This document shows, in pieces, positions 31,421 through 43,247 of a DNA stretch of 64,000 nt. Location of the stretch: the IMG/VR virus record IMGVR_UViG_3300044716_000844, positions 31,587-95,586 of that record; one strand, 5' to 3'. The notes below the pieces were generated by a model. That model made no database searches. It was not told where the DNA came from and saw only the letters and a list, made by a program, of their open reading frames with translations. This stretch comes from a virus. Every line of letters starts with the position of its first letter. The first letter of the stretch is position 1. The position numbers and the translations under genes were made by a program.

Positions 31421-31570
31421 ATGTCGAGGAAACATCTTGAAGAAGAACTCAAAAAAATCGCAGATCGTATTATAGTCCTCGAATCTGAGAAGGTAGATGA
31501 GAAATATATTAAGCCGCTTTATACTGAGCGGTCAAAAATGATTCAAAAGTGGTGGGAGATTGATGAATAG
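31421..31570 (+). CDS. Small hypothetical protein (49 aa, MSRKHLEEELKK...; not in ORF track)
   Basis: Hand translation; RBS GAGG; overlaps next start. Confidence 0.5.
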   Translation: MSRKHLEEELKKIADRIIVLESEKVDEKYIKPLYTERSKMIQKWWEIDE

Positions 31571-32264
31571 ATTTATTTTTGATGTTGATGGTACACTTAC
31601 ACCATCTCGTGATGTGATTGACCCTATCTTTAAGACTTGGTTTCTACGATTTTGTTCGAACAACCCAGTCTATATCGTAACCGGAAGCGATAAGGCAAAG
31701 ACTATTGAGCAAATCGGGCAAGACGTATGGGACGCTTGTGCTCGAGTGTATCAATGTTCAGGTAACGATGTATGGGAAAACGGTGAAAGCATTCGAGTTA
31801 ACTCGTTTGAACCTACGGACGACATGAACAAGTTCTTCTCAATTTGGCTTAACTTAAGTAACTACAAGATAAGAACTGGACAACATGTAGATGTACGTCC
31901 AGGTCTGATTAACTTCAGTATCATCGGCCGCGGAGCCACAAAGGGCGAACGAGCCGATTATGTAAAATACGATGAAGAGAACGGTGATCGCCGTACTATC
32001 GCTGAAGCATTCAATAACTACTTTAGACCTGGTTACGTTGCTCAGGTGGCTGGTGAGACGGGTATCGATATTATGAGAGCCGGAGAAGATAAGTCACAGA
32101 TCATTCGTGACTTTACTTCAGGCGATAGACTACACTTCTTTGGTGATAAGATTATGCCTGGCGGTAATGATTACACCCTTGCGGCTGAAGTAATTAAAAG
32201 AAGTGGAAGTGTTTATAGTGTAAGAGATTGGAGAGAGACATGGCAGCACCTGAAAAGATCATAG
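31563..32264 (+). CDS. HAD-IIB hydrolase, eukaryotic-type phosphomannomutase-like
   Basis: FDVDGTLT, VTGSD, INFS.IGR, FFGDKIMPGGNDY. Confidence 0.85.
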   Translation: MNRFIFDVDGTLTPSRDVIDPIFKTWFLRFCSNNPVYIVTGSDKAKTIEQIGQDVWDACARVYQCSGNDVWENGESIRVNSFEPTDDMNKFFSIWLNLSNYKIRTGQHVDVRPGLINFSIIGRGATKGERADYVKYDEENGDRRTIAEAFNNYFRPGYVAQVAGETGIDIMRAGEDKSQIIRDFTSGDRLHFFGDKIMPGGNDYTLAAEVIKRSGSVYSVRDWRETWQHLKRS

Positions 32265-32683
32265 GATTTACTGCATCAACGTTTGACCTTCTTCATGCTG
32301 GTCATATCTCAATGCTGCGTGAAGCAAAAGAGCACTGTACCTATCTTATCGCTGCTTTGCAGGTAGATCCGTCTATCGACCGCAAAGAGAAGAACAAACC
32401 GGTTCAAACACTCGTAGAACGATACGTACAATTGTCTGCAGTGAAGTATGTAGATGAGATTGTGTGCTATGTGACTGAGCAAGATCTTGTTGACATTCTG
32501 CAGATGTATGATATAAATGTAAGGATACTTGGTGACGAGTACAAAGACAAAGACTTCACGGGTAAAGATGTGTGTCAAGCCCGAGGTATTGATTTGTACT
32601 TTAACAAGCGAGACCATCGCTTCAGTAGTTCTGGTCTACGTAAACGAATTTATGATATGGAGAAACTAAAAGATGTCAACTAA
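32240..32683 (+). CDS. Cytidylyltransferase (TagD / glycerol-3-phosphate cytidylyltransferase-like)
   Basis: FDLLHAGH (HxGH), KYVDE, R...SSSGLR. Confidence 0.85.
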   Translation: MAAPEKIIGFTASTFDLLHAGHISMLREAKEHCTYLIAALQVDPSIDRKEKNKPVQTLVERYVQLSAVKYVDEIVCYVTEQDLVDILQMYDINVRILGDEYKDKDFTGKDVCQARGIDLYFNKRDHRFSSSGLRKRIYDMEKLKDVN

Positions 32684-33095
32684 CTGGGTACAGGATATTA
32701 ACGACATGCATGCTAAGTTCGGCGTGCATAAGTGGGTAGGACAAAAGCTTACTGAAGGTGACATTGAGTCTCTTCGTAAATTCATGCAGTTTCGTATTGA
32801 CTTTCTCAAAGAAGAGTTGGCTGAAACTGAAAAAGCTTTTGGTACCTATGACGCAGAAGAGATCGTCGATGGTCTCATCGATCTTTGTGTTGTGGCTATC
32901 GGTACACTTGATGCTTTTGGTATCGACGCCCACAAAGCTTGGGATGCAGTTCATTCAGCAAACATGAGCAAGGAACCAGGTGTGAAACCTTCACGACCCA
33001 ATCCGCTTGGGCTACCTGATCTGATCAAGCCTGAAGGGTGGACTGCTCCTTCTCATGAAGGTAATCACTCGATCATGGGAATTTTGCACAAATAA
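32673..33095 (+). CDS. MazG-like / PRA-PH-type NTP pyrophosphohydrolase
   Basis: EELAE, EIVDGLIDL, VHSANMSK, KPEGW.AP. Confidence 0.8.
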   Translation: MSTNWVQDINDMHAKFGVHKWVGQKLTEGDIESLRKFMQFRIDFLKEELAETEKAFGTYDAEEIVDGLIDLCVVAIGTLDAFGIDAHKAWDAVHSANMSKEPGVKPSRPNPLGLPDLIKPEGWTAPSHEGNHSIMGILHK

Positions 33096-34264: not shown

Positions 34265-34513
34265 ATGGCTACCTTTGATCTTGACGTTCTTCGTGGTCTC
34301 GAAAATCTTTCGCTTGACGAGGCTAAAACTATTTCAATCGACATCATCAAAACCAGTAAGACAAAGCCTGCTGTCATGAATCGATTGGTTAATGACCTCA
34401 CGAAAGCCCCTACCCCGAAAGAAGTCTCACGCATTATGTGGCAGACTTACATGTCTGGAACCGGCTTTGGAACACTCAACTCAGCTTGGAAAAAGCATTA
34501 TAAAAGTGTATAA
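34265..34513 (+). CDS. Hypothetical protein (82 aa)
   Basis: Operonic ORF. Confidence 0.65.
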   Translation: MATFDLDVLRGLENLSLDEAKTISIDIIKTSKTKPAVMNRLVNDLTKAPTPKEVSRIMWQTYMSGTGFGTLNSAWKKHYKSV

Positions 34514-35088
34514 TGATGATTTGTAAAGTACCAGAAAAAATTACCTTTGTACTAACTGAAGATCAGAAGAACCATATTCTTCAAATGGCAAAGGAAATTC
34601 ATGCCTGTCCTGTGCGCTCGCGGGGCAGGCCTTATGACATGATCTATAGAGCTGTACGCAATGGTGCTATTCTTGAATATGCTCTTGTAGCTCAAGGCGC
34701 TACTAAGAACGACGCCACATTCGATCATACTGATCCACTCACATACTGTTGGGATGTATTCTGGGATGGTCTTCGTGCAGAAGTGAAGTGTTTTTACTTC
34801 GATGAAAATACCCGATGGGTATCATTCCCATTACGGTTTGTGCAAACATTTATAAACACTACGCGACGAGGCAGAAATCTTGTTGACATAATCATCTTTG
34901 GGTATTATACTGAGAGTAAGGATGGCGAGATCACTGCAAAATGGCGCCTTGTAGCGCCAAGTGATACGTTCGAGTCACGACTGCGAAAATGCAATAGCGA
35001 ATATAAAAGTAGCTATGATCAGTACACCGGTCAGCTTAAGTACTTCTATTCTCATCCGGCTGAGCCGCGAGCAATTTATATTAAGTGA
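34513..35088 (+). CDS. Hypothetical protein, possible PD-(D/E)xK nuclease fold
   Basis: GAILE ... WDV ... AEVK spacing. Confidence 0.4.
   Translation: MMICKVPEKITFVLTEDQKNHILQMAKEIHACPVRSRGRPYDMIYRAVRNGAILEYALVAQGATKNDATFDHTDPLTYCWDVFWDGLRAEVKCFYFDENTRWVSFPLRFVQTFINTTRRGRNLVDIIIFGYYTESKDGEITAKWRLVAPSDTFESRLRKCNSEYKSSYDQYTGQLKYFYSHPAEPRAIYIK
34883..34911 (+). promoter_or_regulatory. Sigma70-type promoter inside the CDS, upstream of the DNA-modification cluster
   Basis: TTGACA-N17-TATACT. Confidence 0.7.
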
Positions 35089-35094
35089 GGTTTC

Positions 35095-35646
35095 ATGATT
35101 CTAATTATCGAAGGTATGGATCGTTGTGGTAAGTCGACACTCGTCGAACAACTGCGTAAACGATACTTTTTGAATAACACTCGAGTGCTCGTTCATCACT
35201 CGTCGTCTCCGCCAAAGGTGGTTAATCCGAATGAGTGGGAAGTGCATCACTACAAGTCACTACTTGATGCGAGCTACATGCTGAACTATGCTCATGACTT
35301 TGACGTAATCTATGATCGCTTCCACCTCGGTGCTATCGTCTATGGCAAGAAGTATCGCAACGCAGATCCAGAAGACATCTATGCAATCGAAAACATGTAC
35401 ATCCATCCTAATGATGAGATTGCTCTCGTTCTTCTGACTGATCATACCTCTGCGATCCTTGAACGTGACGACGATGACTCACTCGAATCGTCTGCTGCAG
35501 AGTTTGATGAAACTCGCGAAGCTTTTGAGCAAGCATTCAAACGATCAATCATTCCCAACAAACTTCACATCAATATCACTGAGAACGGTGGATTCATCAA
35601 TACTTATGATACCGTTACTCAATTTCTAGACGGAGTAAGAAAATGA
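35095..35646 (+). CDS. Thymidylate-kinase-like dNMP kinase
   Basis: P-loop IIEGMDRCGKST, YDRF motif. Confidence 0.75.
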   Translation: MILIIEGMDRCGKSTLVEQLRKRYFLNNTRVLVHHSSSPPKVVNPNEWEVHHYKSLLDASYMLNYAHDFDVIYDRFHLGAIVYGKKYRNADPEDIYAIENMYIHPNDEIALVLLTDHTSAILERDDDDSLESSAAEFDETREAFEQAFKRSIIPNKLHINITENGGFINTYDTVTQFLDGVRK

Positions 35647-36314
35647 AACAGTACAAAGTAAAAGACATTCGTATTGCACTTCGTGACAAGCTACACAAAC
35701 AAGACTTTGTTACAGACAAAACTGGTGTGAAGACTATTGAACTTATGGGTACGAGCTTCATCGCTGACGAAGATGCTATCTTCGGCCAAGTAAATTGGGA
35801 CTATGTTGAGCGTGAACTCGAGTGGTATAAGTCTATGTCGCTTAACGTGAACGACATTCCGGGTGGTGTAAAGCAAGAGACAAATCCGCCTCAGATCTGG
35901 ATGTCTGTTGCTGATCCTGATGGTCTTATCAATTCAAACTATGGTTGGGCAATCTGGCACGAAGATAACTGTGAACAGTATGAACACTGTGTTGCAGAGC
36001 TGAAGAAGAATCGTGACTCTCGTCGTGCAATTATGATTTACACTCGGCCACAAATGTGGTATGATTACAACAAGAACGGTCGTTCTGACTTCATGTGTAC
36101 AAACTCTGTGCAGTATCTTGTTCGTAATGATAAAGTCCATGCCGTTGTACAGATGCGATCGAACGATGCTATCTTTGGTTACAAGAATGACCGTGCATGG
36201 CAAGAGCATGTATTGAATAAAGTTGCTCAAGATACAGGTTATGCCCAAGGCGATATCATCTGGAACGCCGGAAGCCTTCACATCTATTCTCGACATTTCG
36301 GGTTGGTTGAATGA
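35643..36314 (+). CDS. gp42: dCMP hydroxymethylase (T4 gp42-like, thymidylate-synthase fold)
   Basis: INSNYGWAIW, SDFMCTNSVQY, MRSNDAIFGYKND.AW (Asp at the cytosine-specificity position), WNAGSLHIYSRHF closely match recalled T4 gp42. Confidence 0.88.
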   Translation: MKQYKVKDIRIALRDKLHKQDFVTDKTGVKTIELMGTSFIADEDAIFGQVNWDYVERELEWYKSMSLNVNDIPGGVKQETNPPQIWMSVADPDGLINSNYGWAIWHEDNCEQYEHCVAELKKNRDSRRAIMIYTRPQMWYDYNKNGRSDFMCTNSVQYLVRNDKVHAVVQMRSNDAIFGYKNDRAWQEHVLNKVAQDTGYAQGDIIWNAGSLHIYSRHFGLVE

Positions 36315-36763
36315 ATAAGTGGGATCATCGTTATCTTAAACTCGCTTATCAGATCGCTCAGTGGTCGAAAGATCCATCGAGTAAGATCGGTGCGGTCACC
36401 GTTGGATCCAAGGGTCAAGTCTTGTCTCAAGGATTCAACGGATTCCCTCGTGGCCTGAAAGATGATCCTGCTCGGCTGAATGATAGAGAAACGAAGTACC
36501 GTTATGTAGTTCATGCCGAAATGAATGCTATCTATAACGCTACTTACAATGGTGTATCTCTTGACGGTGCGACATTGTATGTCTATGGATTGCCTACTTG
36601 CTTTGAATGTGCTAAGGGTGTTATCCAAGTTGGCATTCGGAGAGTGGTCATGCCAAACCAAAAAATCGATGGTAAGTGGCTTGATTCATGGATGCAAAGC
36701 GAATCTTTCTTTACAGAAGCCGGAGTAGATTTTGACTTCATCGATTTTGATCCTGGGCGTTAA
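36311..36763 (+). CDS. cd: dCMP deaminase
   Basis: SKDPS, GFNG.PRG, HAEMNAI, PTC..C zinc motif. Confidence 0.92.
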   Translation: MNKWDHRYLKLAYQIAQWSKDPSSKIGAVTVGSKGQVLSQGFNGFPRGLKDDPARLNDRETKYRYVVHAEMNAIYNATYNGVSLDGATLYVYGLPTCFECAKGVIQVGIRRVVMPNQKIDGKWLDSWMQSESFFTEAGVDFDFIDFDPGR

Positions 36764-37097
36764 TCCCTCGAGTGGTAAACCGAACAAAACAAGTGCAACC
36801 ATCCAGCGACTTAACCGCTGGATGGACTTTCTTCATGTGAAACATTATTCGTTTACAAATGTGATCCATACGACTGGAAAGTATACACAAGATCTTGTTG
36901 ACTTTGAAGCATTGAGAACGTTCACAACTGATGCTAACAAGATCATCGCTCTAGGCCCCTTTGTTTCGAAATCACTAAATAGAGCACACATCAACCATTT
37001 TACACTTCCTCATCCGTCGCCTCTGAATCGACAGTTGAATGATAAGACCTTTGAACACGAATGTCTTATGAAGTGCAAAGCATTTATCGGAGAATGA
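36732..37097 (+). CDS. Uracil-DNA-glycosylase-fold small protein
   Basis: ILGVNPS, IIALG, LPHPSPLNR motifs. Confidence 0.6.
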   Translation: MTSSILILGVNPSSGKPNKTSATIQRLNRWMDFLHVKHYSFTNVIHTTGKYTQDLVDFEALRTFTTDANKIIALGPFVSKSLNRAHINHFTLPHPSPLNRQLNDKTFEHECLMKCKAFIGE

Positions 37098-37098
37098 T

Positions 37099-37959
37099 AT
37101 GAAAGTACTCATAACTGGTGCAAGTGGATATATCGGATCACACATCGTAAAAGCACTCTATAACAAAGGGTATACCATCGATACGCTCGACCAACGTATC
37201 ACTCAGAACACTGGGATGATACAACATATGGTGAATCGTATTCATCATGGAGATATCACTGAACATATCAACATCACTACTCATTACGACGCAGTGATTC
37301 ATTGTGCTGCACTTATTTCTGTCGAAGAGTCGATGAGAATGCCGGAGTCTTACTACGATGTAAATACAAATGGTACGCTTAAACTTCTTCAAAGTCTCAA
37401 GTATAATCATTTCATCTTTGCATCTACCGGTGGTGCATTTGACCCTATTTCGCCATATGCTAAATCAAAGATCATTGCTGAAGAAGCTGTTCGGCAGATC
37501 GCGGCCGAGTATTCAATCTTCAGGTTTTTCAACGTTGCAGGTAACGACGGAGAGCTTGGCCAACCTTATCCGGCGAGCCACATCATTCGAATTGCTGCAG
37601 AAGCTGCAGCTGGCAAGCGAGACAAGATGGTAATCTTTGGAAATGATTATGATACCCCTGATGGCACATGTATTCGTGACTATGTACATGTTGTCGATCT
37701 AGCTGAAGCCATTGTTCGAAGTGTTCCTCTTCCTGCAAATTCAAAATATGAATGCATCGGTTCTGGCCGAGGATTCTCGAATCTTGAAGTCATAAATACA
37801 ATGAAGGAAGTCAGCGGTATCGACTTTCCTGTAGAATTCGGTCCACGACGTTCTGGTGATCCAGCGAAACTTCTTGTTGACACCGTATCAAAGTATGTTA
37901 AGATTGATCATGATTTGAAAGATATGTGCCTCTCGGCTTACACTATGGAGTTGAAATGA
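37099..37959 (+). CDS. galE: UDP-glucose 4-epimerase-like NAD-dependent epimerase
   Basis: TGASGYIGSH, YAKSK (YxxxK), RFFNVAG, TPDGTCIRDYVHVVDLA, RRSGDPA. Confidence 0.88.
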   Translation: MKVLITGASGYIGSHIVKALYNKGYTIDTLDQRITQNTGMIQHMVNRIHHGDITEHINITTHYDAVIHCAALISVEESMRMPESYYDVNTNGTLKLLQSLKYNHFIFASTGGAFDPISPYAKSKIIAEEAVRQIAAEYSIFRFFNVAGNDGELGQPYPASHIIRIAAEAAAGKRDKMVIFGNDYDTPDGTCIRDYVHVVDLAEAIVRSVPLPANSKYECIGSGRGFSNLEVINTMKEVSGIDFPVEFGPRRSGDPAKLLVDTVSKYVKIDHDLKDMCLSAYTMELK

Positions 37960-39059
37960 AAAAGATTCTGATTACCGGTATGAACCGGCTGCAGTGCAAT
38001 AAAGACTTTTATTTGAAGCAGCAATTGCAAGTTGTCCCATCCCACTATTCGGTTATTCGTTGCCTTGAAGATATGGGATATGAAGTTGAACAGAGAGAAG
38101 TTGCTCTCGGTGAAGATCTGTCGTCGTATGATGAAGTGATCGTTTACATCCACAGCATTCAAGCGTTCTGCCAACACATTTGGTCTGGTCTATACGCTGT
38201 TGCAGCTCGGCCGAATTGCATCATTGCTTTCGATGACTGGCAATTCAATCAGATCTATGGCGCTATCCAGACGTACCACGACGACCTCGTAGCAGGTGAT
38301 GAGTCAGTTTATCGTGACTATCTCTTCGATCTGTGGGCAGGTAAAGAAGATCGCGAGACTGTTAAGAAGTACCATCAGTCATACATTGATGCATGTAAGA
38401 TCGTTGTATCGAAACAGAACCGGTTACTTGTCAGTGCTTTCGACGGTGGTGATATCTCCTTGCTGAACCTTGGTTGGGATGAGTCGAAAGTTCATGTATT
38501 CAATCCAAACCCCTACCACCTGAATCGTCGTGCCGACAATGGCTATGGCACCGGTGTAGTTACATCAACTCTTGATTCGTTCTTTAATGAAGAGCCTGCG
38601 AAGCTTTTCCGTTGGAACTTTGCATCTCTTGTTCAAGAGAAGACTCGCAAATGGCTCAAAGCCCAGAACCCTGAGAAGTGGCAATGGGAAATCGAGTACT
38701 TCGGTGCTAAGCGTGGTAAGTACAAGTCCGAACGTAAGACTGAACCTGAGATGGTGAAAGTCTTTGAGCAACAGTGGGGTTGCTTGATGCCAGGCTATTT
38801 CCATGCAGGTTCTGGTTGGTGGCGCGCTCGTCCTTTGCAGGTTGCTGATGCTGGATCGATCATTATTGGTGACAAGCCTGAGATGATGGTGTATTATAAG
38901 GATGAAGCCATTGCTGGCTTGAGAGTACAGGACATTGAAGCCATGGACTTGACTCAACTGAAAGCTACAGCTGCAGCTCAAAAAGAAGCGCTGTATGCTA
39001 CTCATCCTCTCGATAAAGCAGTTCAGCGTGAAGAACTGAGAAAGATCCTTGAAGCATGA
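37956..39059 (+). CDS. DNA glycosyltransferase, T4 beta-glucosyltransferase-like (GT-B)
   Basis: Colinear similarity to recalled T4 BGT segments (VPS..EMG..V, YD..IV...SI..F, IEYFG, R..Q/E...A...IIGD); ATGA-coupled to galE and glf. Confidence 0.65.
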   Translation: MKKILITGMNRLQCNKDFYLKQQLQVVPSHYSVIRCLEDMGYEVEQREVALGEDLSSYDEVIVYIHSIQAFCQHIWSGLYAVAARPNCIIAFDDWQFNQIYGAIQTYHDDLVAGDESVYRDYLFDLWAGKEDRETVKKYHQSYIDACKIVVSKQNRLLVSAFDGGDISLLNLGWDESKVHVFNPNPYHLNRRADNGYGTGVVTSTLDSFFNEEPAKLFRWNFASLVQEKTRKWLKAQNPEKWQWEIEYFGAKRGKYKSERKTEPEMVKVFEQQWGCLMPGYFHAGSGWWRARPLQVADAGSIIIGDKPEMMVYYKDEAIAGLRVQDIEAMDLTQLKATAAAQKEALYATHPLDKAVQREELRKILEA

Positions 39060-40066
39060 AGAAGATTCTTGTAGTTGGTGCTGGCTTGTCTGGCGCCACT
39101 ATTGCTCGTGAGCTTGCAGAAACTGAGCAATACAAAGTTTGGGTATTTGACAAGCGTGGCCACGTTGCTGGTAATGCTTATGACTACACTAACATTCACA
39201 ATATTCGTGTACATGAGTATGGCCCTCACCTGTTTCATACAAACAATAAAGAGGTGTTTGATTACCTTGGCCGCTTTACTGAATGGGTTGAGTACAAGCA
39301 TAAGGTGAAAGCTCAGCTCGATGACGGTCGATATGTCACACTTCCTGTGAACAAAGAGACCAAAGAGATCGTTGGCGAAGAGAATGTTCTCGACATCTTC
39401 TTCCGTCCTTACACAAAGAAGATGTGGGGAATGGAACTTGACGAATTGAATCCTGACATTATCAACCGTGTACCGATTCGTAATGATATGAACGAGCTAT
39501 ACTTCCCTGATGATCAGTATCAAGCCATGCCGAAAGATGGCTATACTGAAATGGTTGCAAACATGCTTGACCACCCAAACATCATTGTTAAACTTAACAC
39601 TGAGTATTCAAAAGACTACGATCATCTATTTGATCATATCTTTAACTCGATGCCGATCGATGAATACTTTGACTTTGTCCATGGCGAACTTCCGTATCGT
39701 TCGATCAAGTTTCATACTACAACACTGCCAAATCCTCACGTACTTCCATCAGCAACAGTCAACTTCACGAATGATGGTATCTACACTCGTGTAACTGAAT
39801 GGAAGAAACTGCCTCATCATGGAGACAATAAATATTGCACAACACTGACTTACGAAGAACCGTGCGATTACCGTGATAACAACCGAGAACGGTTCTATCC
39901 AGTGAAAGACCGTGATGGTAAGAACAGAGAGTTGTATGAGAAGTACAAATCCATGACTCCGAGTAATACGACCTTCATTGGTCGTTGTGGCCTCTATGCT
40001 TATCTTGATCTTCACCAAGCAGTCAACTCGGCCTTAGCAATAGTGAGAAAATTTAAGAATGAGTAA
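39056..40066 (+). CDS. glf: UDP-galactopyranose mutase
   Basis: VVGAGLSG FAD motif, GNAYD, HEYGPHLFHT, YTKKMWG, YRS, TRVTE.K, FYP, GR...YAYLD. Confidence 0.9.
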   Translation: MKKILVVGAGLSGATIARELAETEQYKVWVFDKRGHVAGNAYDYTNIHNIRVHEYGPHLFHTNNKEVFDYLGRFTEWVEYKHKVKAQLDDGRYVTLPVNKETKEIVGEENVLDIFFRPYTKKMWGMELDELNPDIINRVPIRNDMNELYFPDDQYQAMPKDGYTEMVANMLDHPNIIVKLNTEYSKDYDHLFDHIFNSMPIDEYFDFVHGELPYRSIKFHTTTLPNPHVLPSATVNFTNDGIYTRVTEWKKLPHHGDNKYCTTLTYEEPCDYRDNNRERFYPVKDRDGKNRELYEKYKSMTPSNTTFIGRCGLYAYLDLHQAVNSALAIVRKFKNE

Positions 40067-41261
40067 CTTCACCCACGCGTCTATCGTTCCTCTTATTGGC
40101 GGCGAAACTATTGGATCGGAAAGAGCCTTTGGCGCTCCTCCTATTCACTTCATGTCATATGAAGCTTTTGCTGCAAACGATTCTCATATTCTGAACCACT
40201 ATGAGAATCGTATTCCATATTACGTTCTTGATAAGGGCCAAGCACCTTCCGAGCGCGCAGATGTGGTTGCGTCCGTGTGCCCGTGCGCAGGACTATCTAT
40301 GATGTCTCATGGCTATGGCGACCACAATGAAAACAACAAGTGGATGGACATTACCGCAAAGTACGTCCTTGGCGAATATAAGCCAAAAGTGTTATGGGGA
40401 GAGAATGCTCCAGGTTTTGCTGGCAAGATCGGTAAGAACGTTCGTGAGAACCTGAAAAAGATCGGACAAGAGAACGGCTACACAATGTCGGTCTATCGTA
40501 CAAAGTCTTTGCTTCATGGTGTTCCACAGATTCGTGAACGTTCATTCTACTTCTTCTGGAAAGGTACGCAGACTCCACTCCTGAATTACTATAATCGCCC
40601 ATACACTCCTATTGAGGAAGTCATTCGTAATGTGAAGTCGAACTTCCAGCACGAGCCGATCAACAAGAAGAAGCCATCGGAAAATCCATACTACAAGTAC
40701 ATCCTTGAAGCAATTCATGGTGGTCGTACTCACGTACAACATTCACATGAGATCGATCCATCATCTGCTCGTGGTAATGACTCATTTAGTTATATTGAGA
40801 AGTCTGGCCATAATTATAAGCAAGTTGCTGAATGGATGGAAGCCAATGGATTCTCTGAAGAAGTCGAGAAGTGCCTCTACAAGTACAATAAGCTTGAAGA
40901 AGGCGGAAGCATCATGCGCCGGGGTGTAATTGTCCCTAAGGATCGCATCGGCGCTTTTGTAGGACACTATCCGATCATGCTTACACATCCAGACGAAGAT
41001 CGCTTCATTACCTACCGCGAAGCCATGACTATTATGGGCCTTCCAGAGAACTTTGAACTTGTGAATGCTAGCCCGAAGAATGCTAACCATATTTGCCAAA
41101 ACGTTCCAGTTCAGACTGCGACTGACATGGCGACAGAAGTTCTTGCTGTGTTAAATGGCCAAAGAAAAATGGTTGACACCGATTACATTTTGCAGTATAA
41201 TGGAACTCAGACAGAGGAATTCACCGCTGCTGAAAATACACTTGAGAGCTTTTTTGAATGA
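40059..41261 (+). CDS. C5-cytosine DNA methyltransferase homolog
   Basis: Motif IV CPCAGLS, VI GENAP, VIII PQIRERSF, IX RFITYREAM..MGLP, X QNVPV; atypical motif I (VPLIGG). Confidence 0.8.
   Translation: MSNFTHASIVPLIGGETIGSERAFGAPPIHFMSYEAFAANDSHILNHYENRIPYYVLDKGQAPSERADVVASVCPCAGLSMMSHGYGDHNENNKWMDITAKYVLGEYKPKVLWGENAPGFAGKIGKNVRENLKKIGQENGYTMSVYRTKSLLHGVPQIRERSFYFFWKGTQTPLLNYYNRPYTPIEEVIRNVKSNFQHEPINKKKPSENPYYKYILEAIHGGRTHVQHSHEIDPSSARGNDSFSYIEKSGHNYKQVAEWMEANGFSEEVEKCLYKYNKLEEGGSIMRRGVIVPKDRIGAFVGHYPIMLTHPDEDRFITYREAMTIMGLPENFELVNASPKNANHICQNVPVQTATDMATEVLAVLNGQRKMVDTDYILQYNGTQTEEFTAAENTLESFFE
41173..41201 (+). promoter_or_regulatory. Perfect sigma70 promoter inside the 3' end of the MTase gene
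   Basis: TTGACA-N17-TATAAT. Confidence 0.8.
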
Positions 41262-41896
41262 ACCAACACTTTATCTTTGACTTTGAAACGCTTGGTCAAG
41301 ATGTGTTTCAAATCCCAATGCTTGAATGCTCGTATGTAGTATTCGATTGGGGTCGTTTTACATCTGACAATCCTTACACACTTGAAGAACTGGTACGTCT
41401 TTCTCGTAAAGACAAGTTAGAAATGGTTCATCAGGTTCAAGAGCATGGAGCTAAATACACTCAACGCGATCTTGATTGGTGGCTATCACAATCTGAAGAA
41501 GCAAAGAAAGTACTACGGCCGAGTAAATCAGACGTTAGTGCTGAAGTGTTTATTAATAACTTCATTGATTATCTAAAAGAAGCTGGTAAGATTAACTACT
41601 GGTGGTCTCGTTCAAATTCATTCGATCCCATCATTCTTCAGCGTTGGGGTACCATTGTTGGTCGTCAAGAAGAAATCGGTGAATTGTTAAAGTTCTGGCT
41701 CGTACGAGATACTCGTACATGGATCGATGCAAAGCTAAACTTCCCAAAGAAGAACGGCTTCGTTCCCTTAGCAGATGAAGAGTATTGGAACAACACATTC
41801 GTACACCATGATAGCCGGTTTGATATTGCTGCAGATATTCTTCGCCTTCAGACCATCGCTCGCCTTGAAAATGATATGGAACAACCTACACGATGA
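41258..41896 (+). CDS. dexA: 3'-5' exonuclease, DexA-like (DEDD)
   Basis: FDFETLG, WSRSNSFD, RDTRT, HDSRFDIAAD. Confidence 0.8.
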   Translation: MNQHFIFDFETLGQDVFQIPMLECSYVVFDWGRFTSDNPYTLEELVRLSRKDKLEMVHQVQEHGAKYTQRDLDWWLSQSEEAKKVLRPSKSDVSAEVFINNFIDYLKEAGKINYWWSRSNSFDPIILQRWGTIVGRQEEIGELLKFWLVRDTRTWIDAKLNFPKKNGFVPLADEEYWNNTFVHHDSRFDIAADILRLQTIARLENDMEQPTR

Positions 41897-42315
41897 ATAA
41901 ATATAATGAAACCGATACAGGCGCTGTGCGTGAAGCACTCGGCATTCCTTACACCCGACATGTTCCACTTGAAGCAGTAGCTGCTGGTGCTGCTTCTCTT
42001 GAATACGGTGCTAAGAAGTATTCCGATCGTAATTGGGAGAAGGGTCTCCCATGGCAGCAAATGATTGACAGCCTAAAAAGGCATGTTGAAGATTTTGAAC
42101 GCCGTCGCGACTATGACGACGGTGAAGACGGTTCAGATCTTCATCAGGTGTGTATGATCATGGCTTCTGCTATGATGCTATCCGCGTCAGTTATTCGCGG
42201 TATCGGGGTAGACGACAGGCTTCCGGCTGTAGATGAGCATGCACTATCTGCAAAGCAGTGTGCAAAGTTTATCAAAGGACAACTTGAAAATGCAAGACCA
42301 GTGAAAGGTAAATAA
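41893..42315 (+). CDS. dNTP diphosphohydrolase (dATP/dGTP diphosphohydrolase N-terminal, DUF5664-like)
   Basis: TGAVRE, YGAKKYSDRNWEKG, SLKRH, SDLH. Confidence 0.75.
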   Translation: MNKYNETDTGAVREALGIPYTRHVPLEAVAAGAASLEYGAKKYSDRNWEKGLPWQQMIDSLKRHVEDFERRRDYDDGEDGSDLHQVCMIMASAMMLSASVIRGIGVDDRLPAVDEHALSAKQCAKFIKGQLENARPVKGK

Positions 42316-43247
42316 TGGAAATCAAAATTGAAATTGAAAAACTGAGAAAGAAAAAGCTCTTTATCGCTACTCCCATGTACGGTGGGCAGTGTTCTGGCTT
42401 GTATACTAAATCAACTAACGACCTCGCTATGAGCTGTGCCAAGTATGGTATTGACGTAAAATTCTACTACTTGTTCAATGAGTCGCTTATCACTCGTGCT
42501 CGTAACTATTGCGTAGATGAGTTTCTTCGTTCTGATTATACTCATCTCATGTTCATTGACTCGGATATTGGATTCCATTACAAGGATGTATATACTCTTA
42601 TGCATCTCTGTGAGTCTACAGACGAATATGGTGTAATCACCGGTGCTTATCCAAAGAAGACTATTGCTTGGGAAAAGATTCGTACCGCTGTTGAAATGGG
42701 ATTTGCCGATCCGAATCCGTTCCAGCTGGAAAACTTTGTAGGCGATTACGTCTTCAATCCAGATGAAAATTCTACTTCGTTTAGAATTGACGAACCAGTA
42801 AAGATCCGTGAAGGTGGTACTGGCTTCATGATGATTCATCGTGATGTATTTGACAAGTACGCTAAAGCCTATCCTGAGCTGAGTTATATTCCCGACCATG
42901 TTCGTACTGAACACTTTGACGGTAGCCGCGAGATCACTGCTTTCTTTGATTGTGTCATTGATCCGAAGAGTAAGCGCTATCTGTCAGAAGACTATATGTT
43001 TAGTCAATACGCTCGTGCAATTGGTATTAACGTATGGCTTTGCCCGTGGATCCAGTTGAAGCACGTAGGCTCTTATACCTTCGGTGGTTCGCTTTCTGCA
43101 ATGGCTGCGATTCAATCGTCTCCTACCGCAAGTGCTGCGTCGAACCAGAAAAACTATTTGACACCTGCACCAAAGAGTGATATAGTAGACTCTGTACAAC
43201 AACCAAACCGCCAACAGCGGCGTGCTGCAATGAAAAAAGGTAAATGA
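42315..43247 (+). CDS. GT-A-fold glycosyltransferase-like protein
   Basis: IATPMYGG, NESLITRARN, MFIDSDI (DxD), GTGFMMI, YLSEDY. Confidence 0.65.
   Translation: MEIKIEIEKLRKKKLFIATPMYGGQCSGLYTKSTNDLAMSCAKYGIDVKFYYLFNESLITRARNYCVDEFLRSDYTHLMFIDSDIGFHYKDVYTLMHLCESTDEYGVITGAYPKKTIAWEKIRTAVEMGFADPNPFQLENFVGDYVFNPDENSTSFRIDEPVKIREGGTGFMMIHRDVFDKYAKAYPELSYIPDHVRTEHFDGSREITAFFDCVIDPKSKRYLSEDYMFSQYARAIGINVWLCPWIQLKHVGSYTFGGSLSAMAAIQSSPTASAASNQKNYLTPAPKSDIVDSVQQPNRQQRRAAMKKGK
43158..43186 (+). promoter_or_regulatory. Sigma70-type promoter for gp45 (inside upstream CDS)
   Basis: TTGACA-N17-TATAGT with TGn. Confidence 0.75.

Follow-up and report, generated by a model that had tools for sequence, protein, structure and literature searches.

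The window analyzed here, a 64,000-nucleotide stretch of an uncultured T4-like phage, encodes between galE and glf a remote homolog of the T4 beta-glucosyltransferase (BGT). The explanation that we favor, by a modest degree, is that this protein is an inverting, metal-independent, BGT-related GT-B enzyme that would glycosylate hmC in DNA with UDP-galactofuranose (UDP-Galf) as the donor, a reading drawn from sequence comparison and gene context.

A BGT-like gene between galE and glf

The gene, hereafter GT-B, is part of the early nucleotide/replication module, with gp42 on one side and the clamp genes gp45/gp44 on the other. It starts 1.6 kb downstream of the gp42 dCMP hydroxymethylase, which carries the 5hmC signature. 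The features of the cluster are as follows.

32673-33095, plus strand: MazG-like nucleotide pyrophosphohydrolase (PF01503, 7.3e-10; phrog_671, 3.6e-24; PDB DR2231 MazG-like, 1.4e-6)
34513-35088, plus strand: DenB-like endonuclease (phrog_1360, 8.7e-7)
35095-35646, plus strand: thymidylate-kinase-like dNMP kinase (PF02223, 2.3e-6; phrog_761 thymidylate kinase, 2.7e-12)
35643-36314, plus strand: gp42-type dCMP hydroxymethylase, source of the 5-hydroxymethyl acceptor (E 3.3e-86 to T4 dCMP hydroxymethylase 1b49)
36311-36763, plus strand: dCMP deaminase (PF00383, 7.4e-20; phrog_174, 4.3e-44), present in 48/66 loci
36732-37097, plus strand: short UDG-superfamily-like ORF, 121 aa (PF03167, 1.4e-4, below cut-off)
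37099-37959, plus strand: GalE-like UDP-glucose 4-epimerase, compact, 286 aa (PF01370, 1.6e-38)
37956-39059, plus strand: BGT-like GT-B glycosyltransferase, 367 aa, distant T4 beta-glucosyltransferase homolog
39056-40066, plus strand: UDP-galactopyranose mutase Glf, 336 aa (PF03275, 1.5e-55, plus a FAD/NAD Rossmann domain)
40059-41261, plus strand: C5-cytosine DNA methyltransferase-like protein, 400 aa (PF00145, 2.6e-19, only profile positions 55-322 matched)
42315-43247, plus strand: candidate second DNA glycosyltransferase, GT-A fold (phrog_1574, 2.9e-63; motifs R...DSD...SEDY)

An earlier sequence-only reading of this DNA had described a 367-aa ORF between galE and glf with an ATGA overlap at both ends, and we reproduced this arrangement. 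The ORF has a stop-free translation; its ATG at 37956 and the TGA of the epimerase gene before it overlap (gaaATGAaa), as do the glf ATG at 39056 and the GT-B TGA (gcATGAag). An alternative in-frame GTG is located at 37926, but the ATG is preferred because a GGAG sequence is found 6 nt upstream of it. The signatures of the family are T7-G8, D93-D94-W95-Q96, and G285-S286-G287-W288-W289-R290-x-R292.

Remote homology to T4 BGT

The same reading had called the protein a BGT homolog on the strength of five segments aligned with BGT. All five alignments were recovered by profile-profile alignment (hhalign, 44 GT-B family members against 25 PF09198 proteins), with the T4 b-gt gene of NC_000866 as the reference for the segments. 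Segments 1 and 2, in the N-domain, were matched even by plain BLASTP (GT-B residues 23-71 against BGT 14-72, E 0.027 in a single comparison), as well as by hhalign when the family profile was set against BGT as a single sequence (E 1.7e-4). Segments 4 and 5 (IEYFG/IEFFG and WWRARPLQ/ITLRVWET) lie inside a profile-profile match with an E of 4.6e-9 and a probability of 96%, while segment 3 (IIAFDD/YYLFTD, D94/D100) is contained in the full-length hhalign alignment in a region of low per-column confidence. This full-length alignment is colinear, pairing GT-B residues 2-367 with BGT residues 1-351 (E 5e-8). Reversed or column-shuffled BGT profiles scored 12-24 (E 0.03-0.7), whereas the real profile scored 64.3 (E 5e-8); the likeness of GT-B to BGT thus exceeds chance. 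The homology is specific to the BGT family (E 5e-8 to 5e-9), as comparison of the GT-B family profile with T4 alpha-GT found no homology (E 0.18).

Is GT-B then a member of the BGT family proper? Its identity to T4 BGT is only ~14%. The PF09198 model, which is carried by 42/42 real BGT relatives, was not matched by the GT-B protein (Pfam scan, no family at E<=0.01) or by any of the 44 family members (Pfam scan, E<=1). Since PF09198 fails to detect GT-B, we assign it to a separate, unannotated family (phrog_14998), so that the claim of homology stood and that of membership in the family defined by PF09198 fell. Direct searches with the GT-B protein returned nothing from Pfam, NCBIfam, or PDB (the last even at E<=10). 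A six-frame search of the window's own record, which is ~55% complete, found neither PF09198 nor Tet_JBP, but this says little, as the control genomes were silent too. Our favored explanation, which we hold as a whole to be a little more probable than its opposite, includes the view that GT-B shares ancestry with T4 BGT and has diverged past the reach of its Pfam model.

Predicted fold and candidate active-site residues

Structure comparison of the predicted model supports the earlier proposal of a GT-B fold, T4 BGT being the nearest solved structure. BGT outscores unrelated GT-B enzymes by a small margin (18.1 vs 16.8), and a wide structure search gave 16.9 for BGT vs 16.2, a difference that the tool counted as a tie. 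In the model, the protein appears as a compact GT-B fold of ~350 aa that can be superposed on BGT over its whole length, with two Rossmann-like domains and a predicted nucleotide-sugar site in the C-terminal domain, as in the GT-B superfamily.

The hhalign alignment places F92-D93-D94 on BGT F98-T99-D100, with low per-column confidence there; in the predicted model, D94 follows strand 89-91. In BGT, the catalytic base Asp100 closes the fourth strand of the N-domain. Alignments A1, A4, and A6 show no variation at D94, and its conservation in A2 is at least 90%; across homologs with identities of 27-52%, among them the Aeromonas, C48C1, and fused forms, D94, R290, and R292 never vary. These alignments support the placement of Asp94 at the position of the BGT catalytic base. 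Furthermore, hhalign pairs R292 with BGT R269 and G280 with BGT G257. Of the BGT residues that we take to bind UDP (Arg191, Arg195, Arg269, and Glu272), E272 aligns with Q295, and R191/R195 align with V226/T230, beside the conserved K229, so that the set is retained in part. BGT Glu22, presumably a glucose-contacting residue and at least 90% conserved in the BGT family, aligns with Tyr31, a residue that does not vary within the close GT-B family; as read from the alignment, Tyr31 in place of Glu22 would fit a different sugar. The isoelectric point is uninformative on DNA binding, as the GT-B and BGT families both span ~5 to 10.

Linkage to galE and glf and the predicted donor

Could the flanking genes point to the sugar that GT-B transfers? 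Both neighbors are well identified. The epimerase scored 232.8 bits against TIGR01179 (GalE), just below the 262.3 cut-off, and its PDB sequence matches are all UDP-glucose 4-epimerases (best 8e-53), while Glf scored 285 bits against TIGR00031, just below the 303.75 cut-off. An epimerase gene is found upstream of GT-B in 14/66 related loci, the gene neighborhoods being those of IMG/VR loci. The linkage to glf is closer: glf is directly 3' of GT-B, within 60 bp, in 44 of 74 aquatic loci, and every one of the 24 cultured T4-like records with a GT-B homolog (the Aeromonas phage 25 group, Erwinia FBB1, and C48C1) has glf beside it, within ~150 bp. This adjacency persists at GT-B identities down to 26%. 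Since GalE and Glf are encoded on either side of GT-B, in translational coupling with it, the donor predicted for GT-B is UDP-galactofuranose, not UDP-glucose. The altered donor specificity that had been proposed from the sequence is therefore supported by the conserved glf adjacency, with the donor itself a prediction. In terms of the galactofuranosyltransferase class, the glf linkage is strong and the use of UDP-galactofuranose is predicted.

The gene glf is absent from 28 of the 74 related loci that keep GT-B, and because ~40% of the related loci are without it, a tie to galactofuranose does not hold for the entire GT-B family. The GT-Bs from glf-less loci form one separate clade (SH-aLRT 100) with fixed differences at positions 22, 26-28, 188, 221-226, 280-282, and 291-294, which align with the donor-site loops of BGT. 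The comparison of loci with and without glf revealed no extra GT-B divergence across the split (between/within identity ratio of 0.77, compared with 0.76 for gp45 and 0.83-0.90 for the other neighbors). As the glf-linked split is a single event on the GT-B tree, it gives no support for co-evolution of GT-B and glf.

Predicted hydroxymethylcytosine synthesis and DNA as the predicted acceptor

The genes upstream of GT-B resemble a pathway for hmC synthesis. The gp42 homolog, found upstream of GT-B in 53 of 55 related loci, has a MRSND...ND motif with Asp at the equivalents of ThyA-169 and ThyA-177, as in T4 gp42. By analogy with the T4 pathway, the dNMP kinase is likely to perform the hm-dCMP kinase step, and the MazG-like protein is a candidate dCTPase, the analogue of gp56. 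T4 DenB cuts unmodified C-DNA. The distribution of denB is the same as that of gene 42 (PMC2993671), and a DenB-like endonuclease is encoded here. Asp vs Asn at the ThyA-169 equivalent separates 5-hydroxymethyl from 5-hydroxy enzymes (PMC13326640); a 5-hydroxycytosine reading of the cluster was rejected, as the ThyA homolog has Asp, not Asn, at the E. coli ThyA Asp169 position.

The short UDG-like ORF is a recurrent companion of GT-B (32/66 loci). In phage C48C1, which has no gp42, a Tet_JBP oxygenase gene (3.3e-17) is directly upstream of GT-B, and four different genome backgrounds overall show GT-B tracking gp42, TET/JBP, or C5 DNA methyltransferase genes. This context supports DNA as the GT-B acceptor. 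Like BGT, GT-B might flip the base out of the duplex to place the sugar on 5hmC, as the earlier reading had suggested.

A C5 methyltransferase-like partner and its fusions

The methyltransferase-like protein, whose PC, ENx, and QxRxR motifs align to M.HhaI, is encoded by a near-constant partner of GT-B (60/64 loci). Fusions of GT-B to a C5-MTase occur in at least 13 representative clusters, an example being the single 870-aa ORF of locus L087. The linker in true fusions is a UDG domain or a stretch without an assigned domain, and three fused proteins (P0178, P0265, and P0193) carry a full UDG domain between the MTase and GT-B domains. A MazG domain inside the fused proteins was considered and rejected: ORF calls make MazG a separate gene in L094 and L101, where MTase, MazG, and GT-B lie side by side with a ThyA homolog ~0.6 kb downstream. 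The MTase-MazG-GT-B order recurs in dozens of viral contigs. GTDB genomes scanned with the fused proteins gave matches only to the methyltransferase part, with no sign of the GT-B family in these cellular genomes. The presence of a methyltransferase-like partner in a predicted hmC phage is a point against the favored explanation. If the proposed function of GT-B is correct, the fusions would suggest that a methyltransferase fold and a glycosyltransferase act as one coupled machine on cytosine C5 in DNA.

Proposed pathway and alternative explanations

How might these genes work together? From the genes present, the phage would make hm-dCTP through the MazG-like dCTPase, gp42, and the dNMP kinase, and 5hmC would be built into its DNA. 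Host UDP-glucose would be converted to UDP-galactopyranose by GalE and then to UDP-galactofuranose by Glf; the identities of these two enzymes are well supported, and the flux through them is assumed. GT-B would bind the UDP-sugar in its C-terminal domain with Arg290 and Arg292, the invariant arginines in the GSGWWRxR helix, and Asp94, acting as the base, would deprotonate the 5-CH2OH of hmC in duplex DNA, giving beta-galactofuranosyl-oxymethylcytosine. Through translational coupling, the mutase and the transferase would be made together, and the transferase might pull the unfavorable pyranose-furanose equilibrium forward. The GT-A enzyme (42315-43247) probably attaches a further sugar. The modification would be expected to shield the phage DNA from host nucleases.

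Alternatively, the order of the two transferases could be reversed, with GT-A placing the first sugar on hmC and GT-B adding galactofuranose in a second step. Two-step glycans on hmC are already known; the T2/T6 beta-alpha-glucosyltransferase, for example, extends glucosyl-hmC. The GT-A gene is present in 48 of 50 related loci, its AF2 model (pLDDT 79) was matched by Foldseek to GT-A enzymes (STIV A197 at 7e-8, ppGalNAc-T, LH3, and GlfT2), and its conserved motifs, taken from alignment A5, are the R...D[DS]D...EDY motifs reported for JGT-like phage GT-A enzymes that attach sugar directly to 5hmC (doi 10.1101/2023.12.21.572611). On the other hand, C48C1, Aeromonas phage 25, and G001 (a 126-kb record, 83% complete) keep GT-B and glf without a GT-A homolog, GT-B directly follows the TET/JBP gene in C48C1 and often gp42 in the glf-less clade (L066, L078-L083), and BGT, to which it is most closely related, modifies the base directly. 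We therefore consider a second-step role for GT-B unlikely, although GT-A is also a candidate for the first enzyme on hmC and could be the one that uses hmC or UDP-Galf. In another alternative, GT-B would be an hmC DNA glycosyltransferase with a pyranose donor (UDP-Gal or UDP-Glc), Glf serving another transferase or purpose. The donor of BGT itself is UDP-glucose. GlfT2 and other known galactofuranosyltransferases belong to the GT-A class, GlfT2 is among the fold matches of the cluster's own GT-A protein, and GT-B persists in the 28 loci without glf. Such a pyranose donor is nevertheless rather unlikely in view of the close glf linkage in the aquatic loci and cultured records, which extends to genomes without GT-A, the ATGA overlap of GT-B and glf in the window, and the confinement of the glf-less GT-Bs to a clade of their own with differences at the predicted donor-site loops.

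Could the acceptor be something other than DNA? GalE, GT-B, and Glf might form an auxiliary cassette for sugar transfer to a small molecule, a virion protein, or a polymer of the host envelope. For most GT-B enzymes the acceptors are lipids, glycans, or small molecules, and a common fold is no proof of a common function; moreover, phage glf genes have usually been assigned a role in the host cell wall or in metabolism (PMC6630229, PMC9611531). We regard this as quite improbable, because the gene is inside the early nucleotide/replication module from gp42 to gp45/gp44, is linked to gp42, TET/JBP, and C5 MTase genes across the four genome backgrounds, and is in some cases fused to the MTase. Furthermore, no signal or membrane features were noted, and seroconversion cassettes are not expected in lytic T4-like phages.

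Comparison with known systems

GT-B resembles T4 BGT (b-gt; CAZy GT63; PF09198; PDB 1j39, 1qkj, 1c3j) in its colinear remote homology, in the Asp at the catalytic-base position and the Arg at the Arg269 position, and in its location near gene 42 of a T4-like genome. It differs in having Tyr31, Val226, and Gln295 where BGT has Glu22, Arg191, and Glu272, in its coupling to GalE and Glf with the predicted donor UDP-galactofuranose, and in having as companions a GT-A enzyme and a C5-MTase-like protein, neither of which occurs in T4. Bacterial galactofuranosyltransferases (GlfT2, PDB 4fiy) use the donor predicted for GT-B, UDP-alpha-D-galactofuranose, and likewise rely on the Glf mutase. However, they are GT-A (GT2) proteins with glycolipid acceptors, whereas the window protein is a predicted GT-B with DNA as the predicted acceptor.

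Compared by description rather than by sequence, GT-B is also similar to the GT53, GT66, and GT94 enzymes of Pyle et al. (doi 10.1101/2023.12.21.572611), which are GT-B proteins with Foldseek similarity to T4 BGT (E 1e-5 to 1e-7), lie beside MT/5mYOX or ThyS genes that create 5-hydroxymethylpyrimidine, and in some cases depend on a neighboring sugar epimerase. The text of that preprint mentions neither a mutase nor galactofuranose. The RB69, DLP3, and HY126 arabinofuranosyltransferases place a sugar, including the furanose arabinofuranose, on the C5 oxygen of phage cytosine; the 5-hydroxycytosine systems similarly cluster a ThyA homolog, a Tmk-like kinase, and GT-B enzymes; and Rhizobium phage RL38J1 encodes a UDP-galactopyranose mutase and has galactose on its cytosines (PMC13326640).

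Family size and significance

The GT-B family comprises 675 clusters at E<=1e-3 in a word-indexed search and 451 representative clusters in an exhaustive search, almost all of them viral. In the protein atlas, only viral "hypothetical protein" clusters were found, one with PF13524 on 20% of its members. Given the size of this family, which is entirely without annotation, sugar-modified cytosine may be present in many genomes of environmental phages, where it would affect restriction, CRISPR targeting, and sequencing chemistry.

The fixed pairing of GT-B with UDP-galactofuranose genes predicts a DNA sugar modification not yet described. Tentatively, and with slightly less confidence than we give to the enzyme assignment itself, just short of an even balance, we propose that phages with the glf-GT-B pair carry the undescribed base 5-(beta-D-galactofuranosyl-oxymethyl)cytosine, the product of a BGT-derived family whose donor had become a furanose. 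The predicted carriers are abundant aquatic T4-like phages, the Aeromonas phage 25/Aes508/phiAS4 group, Erwinia phage FBB1, and phage C48C1. If this is true, a furanose on hmC would widen the known glycan diversity of phage DNA, and phage glf genes, usually called host-metabolism genes, would be re-read as DNA-modification genes. An hmC transferase with a different donor might, speculatively, find use in hmC labelling. Gene 42 is present without a recognisable glucosyltransferase in T4-like phages such as Aeromonas phages 25, 31, and 44RR (PMC2993671), a long-standing gap that GT-B with glf is a concrete candidate to fill in the Aeromonas phage 25 group. Because carrier phages have been cultured, the prediction is directly testable by nucleoside mass spectrometry.

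Gene Organization and Source Phage

The window belongs to a 95.6-kb viral record (completeness ~55%) of an uncultured T4-like phage, an assignment that follows from the presence of gp45, gp44, gp62-like, gp43, and gp46-like genes, all found in the window. The gene under study and its immediate neighbors are as follows:

37099–37959, compact UDP-glucose 4-epimerase (GalE-like), directly upstream
37956–39059 (+), GT-B, 367-aa protein
39056–40066, UDP-galactopyranose mutase (glf), directly downstream

As the sequence-only reading had described, the 367-aa ORF shows an ATGA overlap at both ends, the GT-B ATG lying on the galE-like stop and the GT-B stop on the glf ATG. GGAG is located 6 nt 5' of the GT-B start codon. 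The protein found no match in Pfam, NCBIfam, or PDB sequence searches, and its sole match in ordinary searches was phrog_14998, of function not known.

Relationship to T4 Beta-Glucosyltransferase

Could this protein be a divergent homolog of T4 beta-glucosyltransferase (BGT), as the same reading proposed? The AlphaFold and Foldseek check that it suggested gave a GT-B fold in a confident model (28 homologs as input; pLDDT 87, pTM 0.85), and T4 BGT was the closest solved structure in three structure searches (Foldseek top solved match 1qkj, E 4.2e-7). The lead of BGT over unrelated GT-B enzymes was only 1–2 Z units (glycogen synthase 16.2–16.8, SenB 16.0, T4 alpha-GT 15.9); therefore, the fold alone proves GT-B, not BGT ancestry.

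At the sequence level, the question of ancestry is settled by profile comparison rather than by fold. A BGT family set seeded with the T4 b-gt gene of NC_000866 comprised 42 proteins, all with PF09198, and the 25 of them that were aligned were compared by hhalign with a profile of 44 diverse relatives of the query protein. The two families matched in the C-terminal domain (probability 96%, E 4.6e-9) and, with the alignment threshold relaxed, gave a single colinear alignment of residues 2–367 with 1–351 of BGT (E 5e-8), while reversed or column-shuffled BGT profiles, used as a control, gave E 0.03–0.7 at best. Set against these control values, the profile–profile scores support remote BGT homology computationally. 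Furthermore, the GT-B family profile matched the single BGT sequence in the N-domain (E 1.7e-4) and did not match T4 alpha-GT (E 0.18).

All five BGT segment pairs listed in the sequence-only reading were recovered in the profile or sequence alignments. In the catalytic-Asp segment, Asp94 of GT-B aligned with BGT Asp100, the catalytic base. Arg292 and Gly280 aligned with BGT Arg269 and Gly257, whereas the positions of BGT Glu22, Arg191, and Glu272 are occupied in GT-B by Tyr31, Val226, and Gln295. D94, R290, and R292 are unchanged even among relatives of 27–36% identity. GT-B represents a new, large, unannotated family of common stock with T4 BGT.

Predicted Synthesis of Hydroxymethylcytosine

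The ThyA homolog at 35643–36314 matches T4 dCMP hydroxymethylase (3e-86) and carries the motif MRSND...ND, with Asp at the ThyA-169 and ThyA-177 equivalents. Asn at position 169 is the mark of 5-hydroxy-dCMP synthases (2026 glycosylated-5-hydroxycytosine paper, PMC13326640); having Asp instead, the window's enzyme is therefore a hydroxymethylase. Its gene is adjoined by those for a MazG-like pyrophosphohydrolase, a Tmk-like kinase, a DenB-like nuclease, and a dCMP deaminase, a gene set that follows the T4 logic of replacing C with 5-hydroxymethylcytosine (hmC) (PMC2993671).

The DenB-like ORF (34513–35088, 191 aa; weak match to endonuclease IV, phrog_1360, 8.7e-7) is consistent with a phage that destroys unmodified C-DNA. 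Located 5 kb upstream, ORF 31560–32264 encodes a phosphomannomutase-like HAD-IIB protein (PF03332, 1.7e-23; phrog_29277, 2.7e-76) that could contribute to the sugar-phosphate metabolism behind the modification; just a few related loci have it. Between the exonuclease and GT-A genes, ORF 41893–42315 (140 aa) encodes a dATP/dGTP diphosphohydrolase N-terminal domain (PF18909, 1.1e-17), a purine-nucleotide hydrolase within a cytosine-modification cluster.

Conservation of the Neighborhood

Across 80 IMG/VR loci with GT-B homologs 49–100% identical, the kept order was gp42, (cd), (UDG-like), (galE), GT-B, (glf), C5-MTase-like, (exo), GT-A, gp45, gp44, the bracketed genes occurring in some loci only.

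Genes near GT-B in related loci (denominators, loci long enough to tell)
gp42, upstream of GT-B: 53/55
C5-MTase-like gene, GT-B neighbor: 60/64
GT-A gene, GT-B neighbor: 48/50
glf, ≤60 bp downstream of GT-B: 44/74
galE, upstream of GT-B: 14/66

More informative than these loci are three other settings: cultured T4-like phages, phage C48C1, and fusions to a methyltransferase. In the first, glf lies within ~150 bp of the GT-B homolog (26–35% identity) in 24/24 cultured T4-like records having one (19 Aeromonas, two of Stenotrophomonas phage IME13, and the Erwinia FBB1 and C48C1 records), and the best glf matches of the whole phage collection are these same 24. In Aeromonas phage 25, the GT-B and glf pair is distant from gp42, and no GT-A homolog was found there. 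The pair belongs to a three-gene block between motA and nrdC.10 (NC_008208, 4893–8164):

PHG25p228nc, Glf mutase, annotated hypothetical
PHG25p227nc, GT-B homolog
ORF225c, 348 aa, without a Pfam family

According to the NC_008208 record, neither PHG25p228nc nor PHG25p227nc is conserved in phage 44RR2.8t. In a 126-kb viral record, the glf homolog match (G001:C1:41749-42771) contains one in-frame TGA, which may stem from an error in sequencing, disruption of the gene, or recoding.

Phage C48C1 has the order Tet_JBP oxygenase, GT-B, glf. The oxygenase (OQ984149, 6580–7998, CDS0066, annotated hypothetical) has a Tet_JBP domain at 3.3e-17 and 62.6 bits (cut-off 34.9), and the complete genome yielded no gp42 homolog. 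GT-B is thus again beside a maker of 5-hydroxymethylpyrimidine, here by a post-replicative route.

Methyltransferase Fusions

Among the 150 best representative clusters, at least 13 consist of single proteins of 750–1400 aa in which GT-B is fused to a methyltransferase, laid out as a complete C5 cytosine methyltransferase domain, a linker or UDG domain, and GT-B; one locus (L087) encodes the fusion as a single 870-aa ORF. Methyltransferase, MazG, and GT-B are three side-by-side genes in dozens of other viral contigs, and at two loci (L094 and L101) a ThyA homolog and dCMP deaminase follow ~0.6 kb downstream. None of the cultured-phage, C48C1, and fusion contexts fits a cell-envelope transferase, and all fit the predicted enzyme acting on C5-substituted pyrimidines in DNA.

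The window's own C5-MTase-like protein (40059–41261) has PC, ENx, and QxRxR motifs that align to M.HhaI; its cofactor-binding N-terminus is atypical, since the Pfam match begins only at profile position 55. This gene sits in a phage predicted to incorporate hmC into its DNA, and in other phages GT-B is fused to the methyltransferase.

A short UDG-superfamily-like ORF (36732–37097) recurs upstream of GT-B in 32/66 loci, and three fusions (P0178, P0265, and P0193) carry a full UDG domain between the methyltransferase and GT-B domains. Therefore, the uracil-DNA-glycosylase fold seems to be part of the modification module. Two tandem GT-B copies each occur in P0143 (867 aa) and at locus L160 (9001–11012), and in both P0178 and P0179 the methyltransferase domain is split by an intein with a LAGLIDADG endonuclease.

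Predicted Sugar Donor and Candidate Second Transferase

The most likely donor of the glf-linked subfamily is UDP-galactofuranose, because the glf linkage persists across wide divergence and without GT-A, and here with overlapping codons. An inverting mechanism like that of BGT would yield a beta-galactofuranoside. GT-Bs from loci lacking glf group in a single clade (SH-aLRT 100) that differs at eleven fixed positions, most of them in stretches aligned to BGT donor-site loops (22–28, 221–226, 280–282, and 291–294). These differences are a mere hint on the donor, as the split is a single evolutionary event across which GT-B divergence is not above that of gp45.

Phage GT-B enzymes next to thymidylate-synthase homologs or TET enzymes are already known (bioRxiv 10.1101/2023.12.21.572611), as is a furanose, arabinofuranose, on cytosine C5-O (PMC13326640). 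For RL38J1, galactosylated 5-hydroxycytosine has been tied to a mutase encoded by the phage (PMC13326640). Our literature search found no paper on the GT-B family, galactofuranosyl-hmC, or methyltransferase–GT-B fusions. Most likely, the family glycosylates hmC in DNA, with galactofuranose the predicted sugar for the window's enzyme; the initial observation is confirmed and its interpretation, a DNA glycosyltransferase with altered donor, is supported at the computational level.

ORF 42315–43247 (phrog_1574, function not known) has a GT-A glycosyltransferase fold with the motifs R...DSD...SEDY, and in 48/50 related loci its gene immediately precedes gene 45. Similar motifs are reported for 5hmC-glycosylating JGT-like enzymes of phages (bioRxiv 10.1101/2023.12.21.572611). 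GT-A is a second candidate DNA glycosyltransferase; the sugar that it attaches may be the second or the first. Because GT-B and glf occur without GT-A in some genomes, we favor GT-B as the base-proximal enzyme.
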